This document shows positions 36,401 through 48,553 of a stretch of DNA of 64,000 bases, piece after piece. The translations under genes and the position numbers were made by a program. Source of the DNA: a virus; IMG/VR virus record IMGVR_UViG_3300043464_002365, positions 9,877-73,876 of that record; one strand, written 5' to 3'. Below the pieces are notes generated by a model that saw only the letters and a list, made by a program, of their open reading frames with translations, had not been told where the DNA came from and ran no database searches. The first letter of the stretch is position 1; each line of letters begins with the position of its first letter.

Positions 36401-37313
36401 TTCCCCACCATGGAATTCCTTGTTAACGCTGGCGGCCTCCTCATTAAGCACGATGAAGAGCAGCTTCTTTCTCTCATTGCTCAGTTCATCAATGAAGGCA
36501 AGCCTGGCTGCGGCTTCTTCATCAAAGGTGTGGGCTGCATTGCTAAGCACGAAGATGGCCAGATGATGATGGGCCGCACCATTGAAACTGTTAGCCGTCT
36601 CTTCAATAAGACCAGCGACGACATTATGCACACTGTCAAGCACTGGGCTTCCGAGGCTGCTTGATTAAGCAAGGGGCGCCTAAAGCGCCCCGTTCTCCCC
36701 CTATTAAAATCATGCAAGACGCTATTAACATTCTCGCCATCAGCAAGAAAGGCAAAAGCCGTATTGGCACCAAGATCACTCTTGGCATTGTTGAGCAGGA
36801 TCATCACGACAAGCTTTTTGTAGTGTTTCCTGAACTAAATCAATGTCGATGGATAAAGAAGGATAATGATCCTGATTTTTGCATTATTGGAGATGATTGA
36901 CCATGGGAACAAATTATTATCTTCATGCTCCAAAATGCCTTCATTGCGGCAAAGAAGAAAAGCTCCCTTTACATCTTGGCAAAAGCTCTTATGGCTGGTG
37001 TTTCGGCCTCCACGTCTATCCAGAAAACGCGCTAAATAACTGGCAGGAAATGTGGAGTCATATTGATTATTTAACGCAAGAAAAAGACTATGAAATAAGA
37101 GATGAATATGGTGATTTTGTTGATAATGGAGAGTTCTTCTCTATCGTCTGGGACAGGAGCGGCAAGCCTGGTAGACTTTTCGACAAGAAATGGCTAAGGG
37201 ATAACTATGCAGAGATAGGTCCTTACGGTCTTGCCAGACATGCTTTACTTGCAGGGCATTGCATAGGCCATGGTAAAGGGCCTTTTGATTACATCATTGG
37301 AGAATTCTCTTGA
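33455..37313 (+). CDS. cluster of small early hypothetical genes (33455-33826, c.33911-34171, 34204-34416, c.34494-34874, c.34941-35180, c.35183-35515, 35512-35742, c.35747-35971, 35968-36270, c.36410-36664, 36897-37313)
   Basis: Co-oriented short ORFs separated by repeated promoter/terminator units. Confidence 0.6.
33828..33879 (+). promoter_or_regulatory. HLR1 (RpaB box) promoter, perfect consensus on the reverse strand
   Basis: Reverse complement GTTACAAA-GC-TTTACAAA; GGCCCCG-GAAA-CGGGGCC hairpin; TATTGT after 28 nt. Confidence 0.8.
34400..34451 (+). promoter_or_regulatory. HLR1-like promoter
   Basis: TTTATGAA-GG-TTTGTAAC, 28 nt, TATTGT. Confidence 0.75.
34867..34919 (+). promoter_or_regulatory. 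HLR1-like promoter
   Basis: TCTGTTAA-GC-ATTGTTAC, 29 nt containing GGGGCG-GAAA-CGCCCC, TATTGT. Confidence 0.7.
36315..36366 (+). promoter_or_regulatory. HLR1-like promoter
   Basis: ATTGTTAA-GC-TTTGTGAA, 28 nt, TATTGT. Confidence 0.7.
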
Positions 37314-37660
37314 ACAAAAAGCTTCGCCAAGCTTTTGAAAGCACCGTCCTTCTTTCTTCGGGCTCCCCATGGGAGCCTTCTTCTTTGCCTTGTTTTGTTA
37401 TCTCTGCTTGCTGCCCCTACAGTCTGCCCTTTGACCCTGCCCGTGACTCTGCTCTTCACCACGAAATGAAAGACTGGCTGGAGCTACTAGGCGCATCTCA
37501 TGAGGAGATCATTGGGCAATCGCCTGACGGAGCCTGGCAAGAGCCTTGCTGGGCTATTTATGGCATCACAGAAGGCCAAGCGAAGCGCTTGGGCAGGCTG
37601 TACCAGCAATGGGCAGTGTTTCGCTTTGACGAGCAGGGGAGAACAGTATTGGCTTGTTGA
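37310..37660 (+). CDS. DUF3293-like protein
   Basis: VISA.CPYS, G.SPDG.W.E, LGRLYQQWAVF. Confidence 0.75.
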   Translation: MNKKLRQAFESTVLLSSGSPWEPSSLPCFVISACCPYSLPFDPARDSALHHEMKDWLELLGASHEEIIGQSPDGAWQEPCWAIYGITEGQAKRLGRLYQQWAVFRFDEQGRTVLAC

Positions 37661-37746
37661 AAGCAAAATAATTGTTAGCATGGCGAAACATCGCGAGACT
37701 GGCATCTCGTGACGTTTCTAACCACTACCAAAGGAGCAGTTTGGCC

Positions 37747-38325
37747 ATGGCTGAACATAAGCATAGCAGCGTGCCTGCAGGGTTTAAGGAGATCCCTGGG
37801 TATGACGGACGCTATTTCATTAATGAGAAGGGCGACGTGTGGAGCGTAGCCAAATCAAGGCTCATGAGCCCACAGACGGACGCCACTCATCCTTATCCAT
37901 GGGTGCTACTAATAAAACCCGACAAGAAAAAGCAGCCAACTACTGTTTATTTTTTAATGCGTCTTACATGGATGCCTCATGCTCCAGGTGAGGTTGGAAT
38001 AGGGGCCAACAAGTGGTGCATCAACCACAAAGACGGAAATAAGCTCAATAGCTCATTGGATAATTTGGAATGGGTGACGAATTCTCAGAATGCTAAGCAC
38101 GCATGGGAGAATGGATTGCAAGCAAAAGGTATCGACAAGAAAAACGCTATCTTCACTTCTATTGACGTGACACTAATCCGCTTGCGAGTGAAATACGGAG
38201 AAAGTGCCTATTCAGTAGCGAAAGAATACAATTGCGCTTATGGCACTATCAAGAAAATGTGTCGCTTTGAGAGCTGGAAACATCAAGACGGTAATCTTAA
38301 CGGACGGATCCGACCAGCATCCTAA
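37747..38325 (+). CDS. NUMOD4-HNH homing endonuclease
   Basis: FKEIPGYDGRYFINEKG; INHKDGNKLN...NLEWVT.SQN..HA. Confidence 0.9.
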   Translation: MAEHKHSSVPAGFKEIPGYDGRYFINEKGDVWSVAKSRLMSPQTDATHPYPWVLLIKPDKKKQPTTVYFLMRLTWMPHAPGEVGIGANKWCINHKDGNKLNSSLDNLEWVTNSQNAKHAWENGLQAKGIDKKNAIFTSIDVTLIRLRVKYGESAYSVAKEYNCAYGTIKKMCRFESWKHQDGNLNGRIRPAS

Positions 38326-38326
38326 A

Positions 38327-38431
38327 AGACCCGGCTGGCTCGGTATCAGACCCGGCTGGCTCGGTATCAGACCCGGCTGGCTCGGTATCAGACCCGGCTG
38401 GCTCGGTATCAGACCCGGCTGGCTCGGTATC
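38327..38431 (+). repeat. 5 x 21 bp perfect tandem repeat AGACCCGGCTGGCTCGGTATC
   Basis: Read directly; followed by an AT-rich tract. Confidence 0.97.
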
Positions 38432-38534
38432 ACCTTTCTTTTATATAATTTCATCTCATCATCACATCATAACGCTGTCGTTATATGCCTTTATGCGCAT
38501 ATGCCGATATCGTTGTATGCGCATAGCCGCATAG

Positions 38535-38566
38535 TAGTACAGACGTACTATAGTACAAACGTACTA
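38535..38566. promoter_or_regulatory. two tandem TAGTAC-N4-GTACTA palindromes (cyanobacterial LexA-box-like)
   Basis: TAGTACAGACGTACTA TAGTACAAACGTACTA. Confidence 0.55.
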
Positions 38567-38660
38567 GCCTGAGGCGAGGGCGATTCCCGGTTCTCCGGTG
38601 GGGAATGGGGAAAATATACCCTACCTGGCAGCCGTAAATATAGCCTACTGGTGGCGGCCT

Positions 38661-38764
38661 TAAGAGAGGCTCACTTGTGACCATGCTAAGAGAGGCTCAC
38701 TTGTGACCATGCTAAGTGAGGCTCACTTGTGGCCGCGCTAAGTGAGGCTCACTTGTGGCCGTGC
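38661..38764 (+). repeat. 4 x 26 bp tandem repeat TAAG(A/T)GAGGCTCACTTGTG(A/G)CC..GC
   Basis: Read directly; internal palindrome AAGTGAG-G-CTCACTT. Confidence 0.95.
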
Positions 38765-38896
38765 TAGTTGTCTCCTACTGGTGACGGCCTTAAAAGTAAG
38801 CCACTGGTGGCGCGCTGATTCTTTCTGCCTACTGGCGCGATTCTGCCGAGCTTCAGTGAGACCAACTGCTGCGCGTTGCTGTCTGCCGCATGGCCT

Positions 38897-38992
38897 TAGG
38901 TGAGCCTCACTGCGCAGCACTAGGTGAGCCCTACTGTTTAGCGTTAATTGTCTCTCACTGTTTAGCGCTAGTTGAGCCCTACTGTTTAGCCC
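38897..38992 (+). repeat. 4 x 24 bp degenerate tandem repeat TAGGTGAGCC(CT)ACTGTTTAGC
   Basis: Read directly; core is the reverse complement of the 26-bp unit core. Confidence 0.85.
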
Positions 38993-39277
38993 TAAGTGTA
39001 GATATTTCAATACGTAACGCCGCTGGCAGTTATGGCGCTTCCAATGGTATGGGCGCTGATTGTTGCGGATTGTTGCAGCAGCGGATTGTCTTGCGGGTTC
39101 CGTGATACGCGCGTACGCGCGATCATCTTTCTGCTGAGCACTGCGCGCAGTCTCTCCCCATTGATAAGCCTGGCTTTTCATTGCGTCGCGGATCGGGCAC
39201 TGATAAGCGTACTGGCTAATCTCCCGCCAAATCAGCGTTGACTGATCGCCCGTGCTTATCGCAGGCGCTTTGCCCCT

Positions 39278-39324
39278 TTGCAAACGCTTGTGGGGCCTGT
39301 AGTGTTCCCTCAGAACCTTGAAAA
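39278..39324 (+). promoter_or_regulatory. sigma70-type promoter followed by rrn-type boxA
   Basis: TTGCAA-16 nt-TAGTGT; GAACCTTGAAAA at 39313-39324. Confidence 0.7.
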
Positions 39325-39359
39325 CCGAAAAGCAACGACATCGAACGCCGCAAGCGTTC

Positions 39360-39416
39360 GCGCGCGGGCCCTTTGTGGTTGCCGTGATGGCGCGGGGTCG
39401 ACTCCCGCTGTGCGCT
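39360..39416 (+). ncRNA. tRNA-like leader element
   Basis: 7-bp acceptor-like stem GCGCGCG/TGTGCGC stacked on T-arm GCGGG-GTCGACT-CCCGC. Confidence 0.55.
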
Positions 39417-39454
39417 TTGCCGGCTTTTGCCGGCCCTTCCCCTCTCTTTTATCT

Positions 39455-40207
39455 ATGGCTACCCTCTCGCACACTGCTGCGCTCCTCCTCTCCTCTCTGG
39501 AGACGGCAGAGCGTCCTAACGGTTCTCTCTTCCTCCGTCTCTCCTCCTCTGCTCCTAGTTGGGCTTCTTCTGTGATTAGAGAAGCTCACTTAGGCGAGCT
39601 CCCTAATGACTCTCGCTATGAGCTCATCAAAGACGCTCTCTCGGCTCTCTCTGATGGCGCCTTCTCTGATGAGGAGGAGGCTATCGACTCGATTGATGAG
39701 CTCTCTCTCGATCTCGTGCCACACAGAACCACGGAGCTCCTCCAGTGGTTTGCTGATCACGCGAACCGCCTCTCCTCCTGCGATGAGGCTCTAGAAAGTG
39801 GCCGCATCTCTGATCTCTGCTCCTATGAGCTCCTCTCTGAAGGGTTCCGCGTGGGAGCTGAGGAGATGCTCTCCTCGCTTATCTCCTCTCTAGAGGAGGA
39901 GCGTCTCTCAGTGTTCAATCCTGACACTGATAGTCAGCTCCTCTTAGGCGACTCCCACGGGATATATATCCCCAAGCTCTGGGCCGATGGACTGGAGGAT
40001 GAGGAGGAGGCAGAGTCCTATTCCGTCTCCTGGGAGGACGTCCTCATCTGTCAAGCTGGCCCAGACTCTGAGAACTACTGGCAAGCATGGGACGCAATCC
40101 TCCGCGATGCTCTCTGGAATGAAAACGGAGAGGATTGGCGCCTCCTGCAGAATGGCGATCTCTGGGCTGTTCGCTCTGACGTAGAGATTCCTGAGGATGC
40201 ATTCTGA
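39455..40207 (+). CDS. acidic Ocr-like (DNA mimic) protein fused to a second acidic domain
   Basis: 250 aa from MATLSH; YELIKD...IDEL..DLVPH..ELLQWFA resembles T7 gp0.3; about 53 Asp/Glu, 2 Lys. Confidence 0.6.
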   Translation: MATLSHTAALLLSSLETAERPNGSLFLRLSSSAPSWASSVIREAHLGELPNDSRYELIKDALSALSDGAFSDEEEAIDSIDELSLDLVPHRTTELLQWFADHANRLSSCDEALESGRISDLCSYELLSEGFRVGAEEMLSSLISSLEEERLSVFNPDTDSQLLLGDSHGIYIPKLWADGLEDEEEAESYSVSWEDVLICQAGPDSENYWQAWDAILRDALWNENGEDWRLLQNGDLWAVRSDVEIPEDAF

Positions 40208-40392
40208 TGAGACGGCTCTCCCTCTCCTCTCGTGAGGCTCTCTACGTCCTATGGGCTCTAGAGGAGGCTCTCCTCATCTCAGAACCTGAGGAGGAGGAGC
40301 TCCTCCTCTCTCTCATCTCTCGTTTGAACGGAGCCGCAGCCCCATTCTCCTCTGCCTCTGCCTCTCGCTCTCGCTCCTCCTCCCATGCCTGA
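40207..40392 (+). CDS. small acidic hypothetical protein
   Basis: TGATG overlap with upstream gene; same codon bias. Confidence 0.55.
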   Translation: MRRLSLSSREALYVLWALEEALLISEPEEEELLLSLISRLNGAAAPFSSASASRSRSSSHA

Positions 40393-41311
40393 CGCTCTCT
40401 CCTCTCTCTACTCTGCCTCTCCTCTCTTTACCATGCTCCTCTCCTCTCCTCTCCTTGACAACGTACGGGCTCTCTCTGGGCTCTCTGGCTCCTTTTACTT
40501 TTACGAACCACGGCAGGAGATTGTCAGCTCCTCCGACTACTGTTCTCCCATTGAATGGCGACAACCATCACCCAATGAGGCAGAGTCTCTCGGACTGGGA
40601 GAGCTCTCCTCCTACTCTTTGGAGCTCTGCCGAGAGCTCGGCTCCTCTGTCACCAAAATCACGCCAGAGGAGGCAGTAGAGCTCCTCTGTGAGCGCAAGC
40701 TATGGCAACGGTGCTCGCTCCTCTGGCTCCCGTCTTACTGTATGGGAGGAGACTACTGCGGCTCTACTCACCACGTGGCTAACGCTCGCTATCTCTTGCG
40801 CCAGTTCTCCTCGCCAGAGCTCAGAGAATGCAACGGAGGCTATGGGAGTCAAGGTGTCATTGTTGACCCTCGCTATCTCTCAGAGGAGCTCCTAGAACTC
40901 CTGCAGAGTCTTGAGAACTATCCCGTTCTCTGTGAGGATGAGCTCTCCTCCTACGAACTAGAACTACAGAACGAAACCTGGGATCACACAATCCGCAGAG
41001 AATGGGAGAGAGCTCTAGAGAGCGCTCTCTCCTCTCTCCTCTCAGACAATGAGGAGCTCGCAGAGAATGCAGTAGAGAGCCTCTCAGAGGATGCCCTGTT
41101 CTCTCTGTTCTCTCATTGTGCCGAGCTCTCTAATACCTACTGGGAGGCAGAGAGCGGAACTACTGTCTATATAGACATTGATCGCATCGCTCAGAGCCTC
41201 TCCTCAGAGCTCCTCCTAGAGCTCCTACAAGAGAGCCTCTCCTCTCAGTTCTCCCAGGCTCTACAGCCTCTCCTAGCCTCCTCTCAGCTCTCCCTGGAGC
41301 TCGCAGGCTGA
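40385..41311 (+). CDS. acidic hypothetical protein (LENYPVLCED..S.YE.E...W family); start may be 40433
   Basis: 308 aa, 2 Lys, same codon bias. Confidence 0.7.
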   Translation: MPDALSSLYSASPLFTMLLSSPLLDNVRALSGLSGSFYFYEPRQEIVSSSDYCSPIEWRQPSPNEAESLGLGELSSYSLELCRELGSSVTKITPEEAVELLCERKLWQRCSLLWLPSYCMGGDYCGSTHHVANARYLLRQFSSPELRECNGGYGSQGVIVDPRYLSEELLELLQSLENYPVLCEDELSSYELELQNETWDHTIRREWERALESALSSLLSDNEELAENAVESLSEDALFSLFSHCAELSNTYWEAESGTTVYIDIDRIAQSLSSELLLELLQESLSSQFSQALQPLLASSQLSLELAG

Positions 41312-41321
41312 TACTCCCTGG

Positions 41322-41352
41322 CAGGCTCTCTCCTCAGTGAGAGAGCCTGTTC
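41322..41352 (+). terminator. hairpin ending the acidic-gene operon
   Basis: CAGGCTCTCTC-CTCAGT-GAGAGAGCCTG-TTCT. Confidence 0.6.
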
Positions 41353-41437
41353 TCTGTGAAAAGTGGGAGCATCTCATCAATTCTCATTGAGTCTCACTTT
41401 GATTCTCAATAACGCCGCTTATTGAGAACGCTCTCCT

Positions 41438-41490
41438 TTTGTAACGTATTGTGAAACGGTAGCAACGGATGCAGACGTATGGAGTAGTGT
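41438..41490 (+). promoter_or_regulatory. HLR1-like promoter with no downstream plus-strand ORF
   Basis: TTTGTAAC-GT-ATTGTGAA, 29 nt, TAGTGT. Confidence 0.6.
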
Positions 41491-41599
41491 ACGCTAGGGA
41501 GCAGTAGAAAGGCCGCCAGTGGTTTTGGGGCTGCGGTATATGCTCCGAAATGTGGCGCTAAAAATGATACAGAATTTTCACTTTCCTAAGTATAAATAC

Positions 41600-42190
41600 T
41601 CACCAATTGCACAAATGTTCTTGTGCTTTTAATTCGCGCCACCAAGTATGTGACCGCCCTTGTCCGCGTTGGCAAGGAAGTTGTCCTGGCCACCAATATG
41701 CATTTTTAGAAACGTTTTGAGAAGCTTCTAGTACCATAAGATTTGCTGGTACATGCAAGCCACAAACGAAATCATTTTGCAATGGCACGATATGATCCAC
41801 ATGGAAAGACTGATCAGTAGCTTGTTCGAGCCATTCAGCGTGAAGATAATGAGCCTGCATTTGTTTTCTCATCTCACCCTTTCTAGCCCACGCGGGGCAA
41901 GCATTAAGTTTTTGAGCTTCTCTTAAGCGACTTTTAGCACGCTCTTTGCCAGGGTTTTCTTTTCTCCAGCGTTTAACTCTTGCTCTGACAGTTTCTGCGC
42001 AACGTTTTCCATATTCACGATTCCTAATGCGTTCTTTTTCACGATTTGCTTCTCTATAAGCTGCCCGTGATTTTTTATTGCAAGCTATGCACTCATTGCT
42101 TTTTCCGTCTGTCAGCTTGATGTCGCGATAGAACTCCGTAAATGCTTTGAATGTCCTGCATTTAACACAGGCCTTAATTCCACTCATCAC
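41600..42190 (-). CDS. HNH endonuclease with N-terminal Zn-binding motif
   Basis: C..C...C..C; HVDHIVPLQ...VCGLHVPANL...N..K. Confidence 0.88.
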   Translation of the reverse strand: MMSGIKACVKCRTFKAFTEFYRDIKLTDGKSNECIACNKKSRAAYREANREKERIRNREYGKRCAETVRARVKRWRKENPGKERAKSRLREAQKLNACPAWARKGEMRKQMQAHYLHAEWLEQATDQSFHVDHIVPLQNDFVCGLHVPANLMVLEASQNVSKNAYWWPGQLPCQRGQGRSHTWWRELKAQEHLCNW

Positions 42191-42629: not shown

Positions 42630-42792
42630 CGCTTGATGCGCTGACTGAAGGAGCGTCGTCTAGCCAGGAAGCTGCATCTAGCCCGTATGAGGCAGCAGCT
42701 TCGCTTACGTCTATCGTAACTCACGCTGTTGGGAGTTGTTTTGTCCCTGTTGTCCCGATCCTGTTATGATGAGGGCTCTCAGCGGAGCAAGC

Positions 42793-43488
42793 ATGGTCCA
42801 GCCAAAGGAAAAGAAGCGCAAAACAGAGGGCTGGGTGTATTTCGTTCAATGGGCGAGCATGCCCTATCACGTGAAAATCGGCTTCTCCACGTCACCAGGA
42901 GAACGCTTCGCATCGTTCCTCACGTCATCGCCAGACACGCTGATCGTCGTCAAGGCTTTTGAAGCCAATCGAGACGATGAGCAGGATCTTCACGAGCGTT
43001 TTGACAATTCTCGCCATGCTGGCGAATGGTTCCACCTTTCCATGGCAATCAAAAAATATCTTGAGAATGAAGCTCCTTGTCAAACGCTGGAGGCGAAGAT
43101 TAAATTTGGCAATAGGAACGAAAGTCGCATTCAGTGGACGCCAATGCGACCAGGGCTGGCTCAGTCTCTCGAAAAGCTGCATCAAGAGAAACGCCTGCCT
43201 CGCTATGTGAAGAATGCTCGAACGTTTGTGCTGTGGGCCATTGGAGACATTGAGGCTTGTGATTATTTTGCCACTTCCAATGCCATTATTCACCACGAAG
43301 CCAATCGTGACGCCTATCAAGCCAAAACTGTTTATAACCAACTGATTGCGCTGGAGGAAGAGGAAATGATTATGAAAAAGCCTGGCAAAACATTTGCCTT
43401 GCTTCCGAAAGGAGAGAGTGAGCTAATTGCAGCAGAGAAGGAGAATGCGAAGAAACGCAAAAGCGCACGAAGCTTAAGGCTTGATTAA
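42793..43488 (+). CDS. GIY-YIG (T5orf172-like) protein with C-terminal winged helix
   Basis: WVYFVQ...VKIGFS...E..LH.RF...GEWF. Confidence 0.8.
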   Translation: MVQPKEKKRKTEGWVYFVQWASMPYHVKIGFSTSPGERFASFLTSSPDTLIVVKAFEANRDDEQDLHERFDNSRHAGEWFHLSMAIKKYLENEAPCQTLEAKIKFGNRNESRIQWTPMRPGLAQSLEKLHQEKRLPRYVKNARTFVLWAIGDIEACDYFATSNAIIHHEANRDAYQAKTVYNQLIALEEEEMIMKKPGKTFALLPKGESELIAAEKENAKKRKSARSLRLD

Positions 43489-43756: not shown

Positions 43757-43819
43757 GACCGTTTGCGCTAGCCTGCCTTAGTTGATTCTCGGGGGACCAT
43801 GGTCCCCTTTTGTCGTCTT

Positions 43820-45250
43820 ATGAAGCTGAAGGAAAAGGCAAAATGTGAGCCGATTGCCCGGACGGGGCGCGTGCAAAACTGGATGGATGATCCTGATGGG
43901 CGTCTTCCGGTGAGCTGCGCCGTAATGGTCGTAGATGATTCAATGGAAGGGCCGAATGGTATTGAAGCATCATGGCGCTTCACTTCTCATGGTCTTCGTA
44001 ATGGTGCCGGCGTAGCTATTCATCTTTCCAATCTTCGTCCTCGTGGTCAAGAGAATGGTAAAGGCCTCACTGCATCTGGCCCTTGTTCTTTTGGCAAGAT
44101 TTATTCCACTCTTAATGAAGTGATTCGTCGCGGCGGGAAATTTAAGAACGGCGCGGTTGTTTTACATCTTGATTACGACCATCCCGACGCCATGGAATTT
44201 GTTTCCATGACCAGGGCGGAATTGCAATGGGCAAAGCGTGCCATCAATGTTGATGAGCAATTCTTTGAGAAGACCACTCCAGAATTTCGCGCTGCATTGA
44301 TTAAGGCGATTGGCAATGGTGATGTGTGGCTAGTAAAAAAGAAATACAACGCCAAGGGGGAACGCGTTTATTTTCAAGTTTGTCTGGAGGTAGCAATGCC
44401 TTCTCGTGGAACTTGCCTGCTTGAACATGTAAATATGGGCGCTTGCTCCATTGATAATCTTGAAGGCGCATTTATTGCTGGCATGACAGAATTGTGCCAG
44501 CTTCATGCTCGCACTGGTGTAGGCAAAAGCAGCGAATACCTTTCGCCGGAAGTTGACAAACAAGTTGGTCTCGGCGTGCTGGGCCTGGCCAATTTTCTTT
44601 CCATCCATGGAATTAGCTACAAAGAGTTTGGCGAAGCCCTTGATGCTTTCCTGATGGACGATCCACATCCCTGGGCGCATTATTGGACAGATACCGTGGC
44701 CGGAAAAGCCGTCCACGCTCTGTATAAGGGCATTGATAGCGCTGCTGACATTGCTCGTGAGCATGGAATGGAACGGGCTTTTGCCATTGCTCCTACTGCA
44801 TCATGCTCCTATCGCTACCTCGACACTCGTGGCTTTACGACAGCCCCTGAAATCGCTCCTCCCATTGATCGCCTTGTGGATCGCGACAGCGAAACCATGG
44901 GCGTTGAGCGCTTTGAATATGGTCCGGTGGAAATCGCAGAGGAGGTGGGCTGGACTGCTTTCCGTAAAGTAGCAGATGGCATTTGCACTCTTCTCCATCG
45001 CACTGGCTTGTTCCATGGTTATTCCATGAACTGGTGGTCTGACATGGTTTCTTGCGACGAAGCTTTTATCAGGGAATGGCTTGACAGTCCTCAAACTTCT
45101 GTTTATTACGCTCTTCAAGTGCAAGCTGGCACTCAGGCTAAAGACGATGTTGGAGTAGACTTGGAAGAAAGTCTGAGCGATTTCTTCTCTATTGAAGAGA
45201 CAGAAAGCTGCTCACTGGACGGAGGATTCTGCGCAGCATGTGCTGAGTAG
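43820..45250 (+). CDS. nrdA: ribonucleotide reductase alpha subunit, minimal class I (cyanophage type)
   Basis: PVSC, QVCLE, TCLL, AIAPTASCS, SVYY, C-terminal CAAC. Confidence 0.92.
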   Translation: MKLKEKAKCEPIARTGRVQNWMDDPDGRLPVSCAVMVVDDSMEGPNGIEASWRFTSHGLRNGAGVAIHLSNLRPRGQENGKGLTASGPCSFGKIYSTLNEVIRRGGKFKNGAVVLHLDYDHPDAMEFVSMTRAELQWAKRAINVDEQFFEKTTPEFRAALIKAIGNGDVWLVKKKYNAKGERVYFQVCLEVAMPSRGTCLLEHVNMGACSIDNLEGAFIAGMTELCQLHARTGVGKSSEYLSPEVDKQVGLGVLGLANFLSIHGISYKEFGEALDAFLMDDPHPWAHYWTDTVAGKAVHALYKGIDSAADIAREHGMERAFAIAPTASCSYRYLDTRGFTTAPEIAPPIDRLVDRDSETMGVERFEYGPVEIAEEVGWTAFRKVADGICTLLHRTGLFHGYSMNWWSDMVSCDEAFIREWLDSPQTSVYYALQVQAGTQAKDDVGVDLEESLSDFFSIEETESCSLDGGFCAACAE

Positions 45251-45319
45251 TCTCCGTAAATTAATGGGCAGCTTTTGCTGCCCTTTGTTGTCTCTTTTCA
45301 CCATCGTTTTGTAATTAAA

Positions 45320-46045
45320 ATGGCAGTTCTGGATTATTTTTCGGCAGTTGCTCGTAAGCGCCCTTGGGATGCAGTGCCTGTAACCAAGGGCGAATTTGTT
45401 GCCGGTTCGGAAGAAACTATTTTCCGGGCTTTGGCTATTCGTCATCTTGAACTGCCCGTGAAGGACATGCTGCTGGAAGGGCTTCAGCGCGAGCTTCCTA
45501 ATACGCCTGGCCTCATTGAGAGCATTGAAAGCAACATGACCGATGAGGAGCGGCATGACAGGGCTCTTGGCTTTGTCACCGATGCCCATGGCGTAGACGA
45601 AAAGGCCGAAAAGGAAGCCTTTAAGATTCGCCAAGCATGGATTGATCACCCCGCCCACCCTATTGCAAAAGTGGCAACTATTGAGCGGAGCCTATTCTTC
45701 ACTATTCTTCCTTTCTTCCGGTTCAACGGAGACAAAGGACTGCGCACAGTGGCGAGCGACATCTCTAGGGATGAAATTTGCCACTCGTTTTGTAATACTA
45801 AAATCTGTGAAGAAGCCGGTGAAAAATATGGCGAGAGCTTGAACAAGCTTCGCAAGATGACAGCACTGTGGATTTATGACAAACTTGGTTCTTCGTCCAA
45901 TAAATATCTGGACAAAGATTTTTGGTTGCGTCAAAGCGATGCGCTGTTCGTAAGCGGCAAGGCGCCTGAACTTAACGAAACAAGGGCTAGTACGATGCCC
46001 AGCTTTTTTGAATGTAATGCGCTAAATTTGCCACAATATGGTTGA
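45320..46045 (+). CDS. nrdB: ribonucleotide reductase beta subunit (ferritin-like)
   Basis: HLE, DEERH, IERSLFF, SRDEICH; directly follows nrdA. Confidence 0.85.
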   Translation: MAVLDYFSAVARKRPWDAVPVTKGEFVAGSEETIFRALAIRHLELPVKDMLLEGLQRELPNTPGLIESIESNMTDEERHDRALGFVTDAHGVDEKAEKEAFKIRQAWIDHPAHPIAKVATIERSLFFTILPFFRFNGDKGLRTVASDISRDEICHSFCNTKICEEAGEKYGESLNKLRKMTALWIYDKLGSSSNKYLDKDFWLRQSDALFVSGKAPELNETRASTMPSFFECNALNLPQYG

Positions 46046-46355: not shown

Positions 46356-46424
46356 GGCCCTGAAGTGTTGGTACACGCTAGGCAGATAGCCTAGAATTCC
46401 GTGGTTCGATTCCCGGCAGCGCCT
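46356..46424 (+). tRNA. degenerate tRNA-like gene, anticodon GAT (Ile)
   Basis: Cloverleaf GGCCCTG/CAGCGCC, GTGT/ACAC, CTAGG-CAGATAG-CCTAG, GGTTCGATTCC; has mismatches, A33 and no CCA. Confidence 0.6.
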
Positions 46425-48294: not shown

Positions 48295-48346
48295 GCTGGT
48301 CCCGTTCCGTACCAGCTAGTCATGCGCCCCTTGAGGGGTGAACGTA
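48295..48346 (-). promoter_or_regulatory. glutamine-II (Downstream-peptide) riboswitch
   Basis: CGUUCA-CCCCUCAAGGGG-CGCA...GCUGGU-ACGGAACG-GG-ACCAGC; -10 TACACT at 48352-48357. Confidence 0.85.
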
Positions 48347-48553
48347 CCATCAGTGTAGCAAAGGGGAGGCTAGAGGAAGTTGAGGGCGCCGAGCGGGGCT
48401 TCAGTCCGCTTTTGTACGACATTTCAGAGCAGGTCGGCCTGCTCCCCTCTTCCCCTGGGGGAACAATGGCGCCTGAAACCATTGTTCCTTTTGAACTAAC
48501 GCTGGCCAGCGTGCTTCGCGAAAGCTCCAAAAGCATAGCATGGTTTCGTGGGT

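Follow-up and report, generated by a model that had tools for sequence, protein, structure and literature searches.

A cyanosiphovirus carries, directly behind a promoter-like site and at the predicted 5' end of a three-gene transcript, a sequence that reproduces the boxA of cyanobacterial ribosomal RNA (rrn) operons. With a probability of roughly 0.55, this is a host rrn boxA copied into a promoter-proximal, nut-like site, which would render the host RNA polymerase rrn-like for transcription of the downstream cassette. An rrn-type boxA in a sense leader behind a promoter-like site had been pointed out in an earlier note on this DNA, and this description is sustained by independent cyanophages that display the same layout and by a precedent in phages T7 and T3. 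The window, as the term is used here, is the whole stretch of 64,000 nt that was analysed, corresponding to bases 9877-73876 of an IMG/VR virus record of 73,876 bp that is rated complete (Table 1).

The portal protein encoded in the window is 66% identical to that of the Synechococcus siphovirus S-CBS4 (host CB0101), and the phage is an S-CBS4-like cyanosiphovirus of the Synechococcus type. Its phage genes include those for terminase, head protease, primase-helicase, an RNase E-like protein and ribonucleotide reductase. A search of the record for a T7-type RNA polymerase gave no match to PF00940, a profile that was also unmatched in the control genomes. Moreover, the minus strand carries a Glutamine-II riboswitch aptamer at 48295-48347 (RF01704, 42.8 bits, above the gathering score), a motif known from marine cyanobacteria and their phages. 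Besides boxA, a second rrn-related feature of the phage is a tRNA-Ile (GAU) at 46356-46424 on the plus strand, a tRNA species found in cyanobacterial 16S-23S spacers. Homology to ribonucleotide reductase is divided between two adjacent ORFs of 483 and 256 aa (43799-46045), and genes of homing-endonuclease type are located near them (GIY-YIG/T5orf172 at 42736-43488, endonuclease VII at 41600-42190 and HNH at 37672-38325). The region 37000-42000 of the window has no DNA match among GenBank phages.

Homology to the corresponding protein of a related contig, L003, starts exactly at ATG 39455, and therefore the 177 nt upstream of this codon constitute a leader. The promoter-like site TTGCAA-16-TAGTGT agrees with the consensus at 7 of 12 positions, falls below the threshold of the promoter scan and is not listed by it. 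Only 7 nt (TCCCTCA) separate TAGTGT from boxA, in line with the earlier note, which had placed boxA near the predicted start of this promoter, and the 12-mer is predicted to lie at or within 1 nt of the 5' end of the transcript. It is the sole copy in the window, even if one mismatch is allowed, and the sole exact copy in the 73,876-bp record. The 7-bp hairpin that the same note had placed behind boxA is likewise read from the sequence. Alternatively, transcription could start further upstream, with a 12-bp hairpin at 39261-39291 acting as an upstream boxB. The second leader hairpin was not called by the terminator scan and is non-canonical as a terminator; a 5-bp stem is retained at this place in L002, another relative. 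Neither an RNA family nor a tRNA was detected by Rfam and ARAGORN over 39278-39450, and the folding energies of the leader are no better than those of shuffled sequence (z +0.22 for the 7-bp hairpin).

The repeat arrays upstream of the promoter comprise at least five copies of the 26-bp unit and three to four copies of the 24-bp unit, contain short palindromes and are largely kept in L002; a role as iterons or operators is conceivable, as is an end-proximal feature. A minus-strand ORF crossing them (38738-39283) has no family match and is probably spurious. On the downstream side, two of the three cassette products are strongly acidic (pI 4.05 and 4.20, D+E 21% and 16%), and the cassette proteins match only PHROG families of unknown function; the acidic cassette is probably early. 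The hairpin at its 3' end is the probable end of the operon, within whose length of approximately 2 kb the terminator scan yielded no strong internal terminator.

Table 1. Features of the boxA leader, its surroundings and the downstream cassette (window coordinates).
Feature	Position	Strand	Description
Tandem-repeat arrays	38635-39000		26-bp and 24-bp units, upstream of promoter
Conserved block	39267-39340	+	promoter-like site, boxA and 3' flank; identical in L002
-35-like hexamer	39278-39283	+	TTGCAA, 4/6 to consensus; aligned with TTGACA of S-CBP4
-10-like hexamer	39300-39305	+	TAGTGT (TAnnnT), 16-nt spacer from -35; aligned with TATGGT of S-CBP4
boxA 12-mer	39313-39324	+	GAACCTTGAAAA; sense to downstream cassette, 131 nt before it, in non-coding leader
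3' flank and spacer	39325-39336	+	CCGAAAAG and AGCAAC-type spacer
7-bp hairpin	39342-39348 / 39354-39360	+	CGAACGC / GCGTTCG, pentaloop CGCAA
Second leader hairpin	39417-39432	+	GCCGGC-UUUU-GCCGGC, then pyrimidine-rich run
Three-ORF cassette	39455-41311	+	39455-40207, 40207-40392, 40385-41311
Hairpin after cassette	41322-41349	+	11-bp perfect hairpin, then UUCUCUGUG

In cyanobacterial 16S-23S spacers, a boxA identical to the window 12-mer has been reported (PMC8461337); in named cyanobacterial genomes it is followed by CTGCATA. In picocyanobacteria, which are likely the host clade here as they are the host clade of S-CBS4-type phages, the spacer boxA features a C at position 10 according to a published primer (PMC9769826), and this base was confirmed in Prochlorococcus, Synechococcus and Vulcanococcus. 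Hence, the statement of the earlier note that the element matches the rrn spacer boxA holds for cyanobacteria generally (12/12) but has to be amended for the spacer of the host clade (11/12). The picocyanobacterial rrn leader contains a second boxA, 330-520 nt before 16S, which fits G-M-A-C-C-T-R-G-A-M-A-A and is matched by the window 12-mer at 10 of 12 positions; the 12-mer fits GMACCTNGAMAA, a consensus built from picocyanobacterial leaders and spacers together. A hairpin lies 5' of this leader boxA, and YYRAAAAG followed by an invariant GTTTAGGAACTGA-type sequence lies 3' of it. At several picocyanobacterial rrn loci (L150, L157, L221, L230 and others) a GC hairpin with a GNRA loop precedes the leader boxA, and an invariant sequence of 20 nt, GTTTAGGAACTGAYGCTTT, comes after it; the leader boxA of Prochlorococcus differs from that of Synechococcus (GCACCTAGAAAA).

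It is the flank that relates the phage element to the leader copy. Beyond the 12-nt core shared with the rrn leader and spacer boxA of cyanobacteria, the phage carries CCGAAAAG, the exact flank of the leader boxA in Cyanobium, Vulcanococcus and freshwater Synechococcus, so that 12-mer and flank together match the Cyanobium/Vulcanococcus rrn leader at 18 of 20 positions. The alignment to host rrn leader and spacer sequences that had been proposed as a check thus confirms the resemblance to boxA, while the best match is the leader boxA with its flank and not the spacer. The surroundings differ as well: host rrn loci place the hairpin before boxA and a GTTTAGGAACTGA-type (leader) or CTGCATAG (spacer) sequence after it, whereas the hairpin of the phage lies downstream. 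The exact 20-mer of the phage is present in no cyanobacterial species-representative genome, which argues against a recently captured host fragment; a captured fragment or an attachment core was rejected on this ground and because the similarity ends after 20 nt. The identical 20-mer does serve as the rrn-leader boxA context, after TATAAT and a hairpin, in gut-metagenome contigs. Ten metagenome contigs (L446-L455; two titled human gut, about 37-49% GC) carry it in apparent rrn leaders, and therefore the combination of boxA and CCGAAAAG recurs outside cyanobacteria. The metagenome scan for the 20-mer yielded gut-type rrn leaders only and no further relatives of the phage.

Regarding chance, the exact 12-mer is expected about 0.008 times per 128 kb of random sequence. 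For the looser family consensus GMACCTNGAMAA the expectation is 0.18, and it is seen by chance in 17% of window shuffles, so that the 12-mer alone is only suggestive. What raises boxA above chance is the combination of the flank match, the block conserved in L002 and the same layout in unrelated cyanophages. The first cassette protein of L002 is 94% identical to that of the window, and the 74 nt of 39267-39340, which span about -46 to +28 when counted from the predicted start, show 0 differences between the two phages; outside this block, 35 differences were counted in 39078-39266 (189 nt) and 14 in 39341-39439 (99 nt), corresponding to 10-18%. On the other hand, L003 keeps the first gene (86% protein identity) under a wholly different leader devoid of boxA, and boxA is therefore dispensable for the gene. 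In L003, several copies of a 25-bp tandem repeat take the place of the leader at about 2450-2900, and a TATTGT box resembling a -10 element precedes its homologue of the first cassette gene. S-CBS4 lacks both the cassette and a leader boxA; two matches of its genome to the GMACCTNGAMAA consensus were dismissed as chance, both being located inside coding sequence, one of them on direct reading. Judged from these comparisons, the boxA element is under constraint where it is present, yet it is an accessory module.

Beyond the window and its relatives, the boxA signal proves common among marine cyanophages, and the GMACCTNGAMAA consensus occurs upstream of the first early genes in cyanopodoviruses of seven genera. 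Part of this cyanophage survey was ascertained by the motif search itself; six cultured cyanopodovirus early regions (S-SBP1, S-RIP2, S-RIP1, Syn5, P-SSP7 and P60) were taken without prior selection. Among these six, S-SBP1 carries a boxA of the host spacer form at 421, identical to the host spacer at 19 of 20 positions and 228 nt before the first gene, and S-RIP2 a boxA with one mismatch at the homologous place, while the early regions fetched for S-RIP1, Syn5, P-SSP7 and P60 contain none. A homology search starting from the S-SBP1 leader added S45-C4, KBS-P-1A, S-CBP3, S-CBP4 and S-TIP37. A scan of IMG/VR with a degenerate 20-mer of the leader type gave 16 matches, a number near chance overall with several matches inside long ORFs, and only its intergenic cyanophage matches were used. 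These are two, L264 and L274, both on T7-like cyanopodovirus contigs; the RNA polymerase of L264 shares 74% identity with its S-SBP1 counterpart, and the leader-type element of L264 is matched in S28-C3 as well. In whole cyanopodovirus genomes, exactly one consensus match was obtained in five of five, always in sense orientation upstream of the first early genes, as compared with one match of the reversed control pattern in all five genomes together.

A spacer-type 19-mer scan of IMG/VR returned 108 stretches; the podovirus leader family accounts for about 65 of these, and many phage contigs reproduce the host spacer context of boxA at 19 of 19 positions. None of the 108 has a tRNA-Ala upstream, and they are therefore not host spacers. 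An open-frame test for sorting these matches into coding and non-coding ones was discarded as too noisy in GC-rich DNA. Near-consensus or perfect promoters share the promoter-boxA geometry of the window in S-CBP4 (TTGACA-17-TATGGT, boxA 9 nt later), S-TIP37 (TTGACG-17-TAGGTT, 9 nt) and the contig L415 (TTGACA-17-TATAAT, 6 nt), the last with a host spacer-type boxA, promoter and boxA being located in L415 7410-7481. In L415, a viral contig that is not T7-like, a small ORF and a primase-helicase gene follow boxA, and Sak4-like recombination genes are oriented divergently from them. An alignment of the window with six cyanopodovirus leaders leaves boxA as the only invariant island, and within it the window pairs best with S-CBP4 across -35, -10, boxA and flank. 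The S-SBP1 group is organised differently, with boxA about 25 nt after a hairpin and no recognisable promoter adjoining. A long conserved hairpin is situated about 25 nt upstream of boxA in L278 (350-420) and at the homologous place in L279, L316 and L317; the order of hairpin and boxA in the S-SBP1 group mimics the boxB-boxA order of the host leader. The literature searched contained no paper joining cyanophages with boxA, NusB or Nus antitermination.

The window site also resembles a nut site. In the window and in S-CBP4 a stem-loop begins 29-30 nt after the start of boxA, and the same offset is found for a hairpin in 17 leaders of the S-CBP3/S-CBP4 type, where the spacer is AGCAC and the loop AGCAA, AGUAA or AUCAA. 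Across an alignment of 18 leaders, in which the window stem is offset by one column and not counted as paired, 87.8% of the hairpin cells are paired as opposed to 65% in shuffles; one hairpin pair shows AU, GC, CG and UA, and no shuffle attains the covariation score. Because the hairpin stands at a fixed distance and covaries in related leaders, the site is nut-like, and the lambdoid nutL and nutR are likewise built, in an early leader, from boxA, a short spacer and a stem-loop whose loop has 5 nt. Compared with the host site, the boxA of lambda is degenerate; that of the window follows the full consensus.

Given this likeness, the element could be a true nut site, at which a phage N-like RNA-binding protein on the hairpin and Nus factors on boxA build a modified polymerase. 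The order of boxA, spacer and hairpin is indeed that of lambda nut and not that of the host rrn leader with its upstream hairpin, and the covarying hairpin with its fixed offset presents similar 5-nt loops (AGCAA, AGUAA, CGCAA). However, lambda needs N, an arginine-rich peptide on boxB, and none is recognisable in the window phage: a crude scan for arginine-rich small proteins near the site gave only overlapping or antisense ORFs and no credible candidate, in agreement with the earlier note, which had recognised no lambda N-like gene. Furthermore, in S-CBP4, S-CBP3 and S-SBP1 the gene that comes first behind the element does not encode an arginine-rich protein, these three genes being mutually unrelated, and the CGCAA loop of the window is not GNRA-like as are the GAAAA/GAAGA pentaloops of lambda boxB. 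An N-dependent site is considered unlikely, yet an additional RNA-binding factor may take part, and the direct capture of the host NusB/NusE complex suggested in that note stands as a conjecture. A comparably low probability is assigned to an element that does not act as RNA at all, be it promoter or initially transcribed DNA, a regulator site or a chance similarity on a mobile promoter module. The frequency of the consensus in window shuffles, its distance of no more than 10 nt from the -10 box in several phages and its dispensability in relatives speak for such an element. Against it, the flanks copy the host leader or spacer context, up to the 19 of 19 spacer positions in many contigs, which would be needless for promoter DNA; boxA of the S-SBP1 group is not located beside a recognisable promoter, and T7 and T3 likewise mimic the boxA of another host.

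In T7, an exact copy of the Escherichia coli rrn boxA is located at 812-824, between promoter A3 (750) and gene 0.3 (925), and in T3 an exact copy occupies 780-792, preceded by A3 and followed by the R0.3 RNase III hairpin and the anti-restriction gene. Both phages thus carry an exact host rrn boxA once per early region, in sense orientation and with a hairpin after it, and they share with the window the placement between a host-type early promoter, in the window a weak promoter-like site, and the first early gene. The differences are that this gene is an anti-restriction gene in T7 and T3 and encodes an acidic protein in the window, that about 60-75 nt separate boxA from the preceding A3 start in the former and boxA stands at the predicted 5' end in the latter, and that the T7/T3 hairpin is an annotated RNase III site and their host has Rho. 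Moreover, T7 and T3 are podoviruses with their own RNA polymerase, whereas the window phage is a siphovirus in which none was found. The layout of the window site represents the cyanobacterial counterpart, in a siphovirus, of the T7/T3 early-leader boxA. The role of the T7 boxA is not known to have been settled, and literature searches for its function gave nothing.

A boxA in an mRNA leader outside rRNA is also found, and is functional, in the 5'UTR of E. coli suhB, where it acts close to the ribosome-binding site by translational repression and subsequent Rho termination, unlike the arrangement in the window (PMC5725501). By this example and that of lambda N, the phage boxA could be negative, with Nus factors repressing translation of the first gene, or it could be a decoy leader that titrates NusB-S10 from rRNA synthesis. 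An mRNA-leader boxA can repress translation across tens of nucleotides (PMC5725501), and a strong early promoter would yield many copies of the leader. Yet Rho termination is the final step of the suhB mechanism and the hosts are without Rho, the start codon is 131 nt away and beyond two hairpins, and one site per genome makes a weak sponge; a negative or decoy function is accordingly deemed quite improbable.

The preferred reading, a nut-like boxA copy that acts on the host polymerase, draws on host factors. The NusB family is present in all three picocyanobacterial genomes searched and in the Synechococcus elongatus control, while the Rho RNA-binding domain is absent from the same four genomes. 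The composite site would comprise boxA, a short A-rich spacer and the hairpin. Host RNA polymerase would start at about 39312-39313, so that boxA would be the first RNA to emerge, and host NusB-S10 bound to boxA, together with NusA and NusG, would tether the RNA to the polymerase. This would convert the enzyme into an rrn-like complex, fast and resistant to pauses and terminators, which would then transcribe the acidic cassette. As the hosts have NusB, Nus recruitment at the phage boxA is likely. The classical role of opposing Rho cannot apply in hosts without Rho, and as the operon moreover lacks a strong internal terminator in the scan, the label antiterminator is an assumption; faster or pause-resistant elongation, RNA looping and translation control are equally possible. 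With respect to the benefit for the phage, higher speed, pause resistance or RNA looping are more likely than an anti-Rho effect or read-through of intrinsic terminators.

Elements of this kind are already known from lambda, T7 and T3. What is new is the spread across cyanophage lineages, together with a predicted 5'-terminal position, a covarying hairpin downstream of boxA and a host without Rho. It is tentatively suggested, as a possibility with less than even odds, that Synechococcus phages, siphoviruses as well as T7-like podoviruses, generally begin their early transcripts with an imitation of the host rrn boxA, and do so in a Rho-less host. If true, the Nus complex would have a function independent of Rho from which phages profit, for example faster, pause-free transcription, and in T7-like phages boxA could also speed transcription-driven genome entry. 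Since their hosts have NusB and no Rho, cyanophages constitute a natural test of Nus-boxA roles beyond opposing Rho.

Cyanophages control the most abundant marine phototrophs, and little is known of how the host polymerase is driven through their early genes. A host boxA heading early operons offers a concrete and testable mechanism and, in addition, a sequence tag for early promoters and leading genome ends in both cultured and metagenomic cyanophages. Finally, the cyanophage boxA may also explain the long-noted and so far unexplained boxA of T7 and T3.
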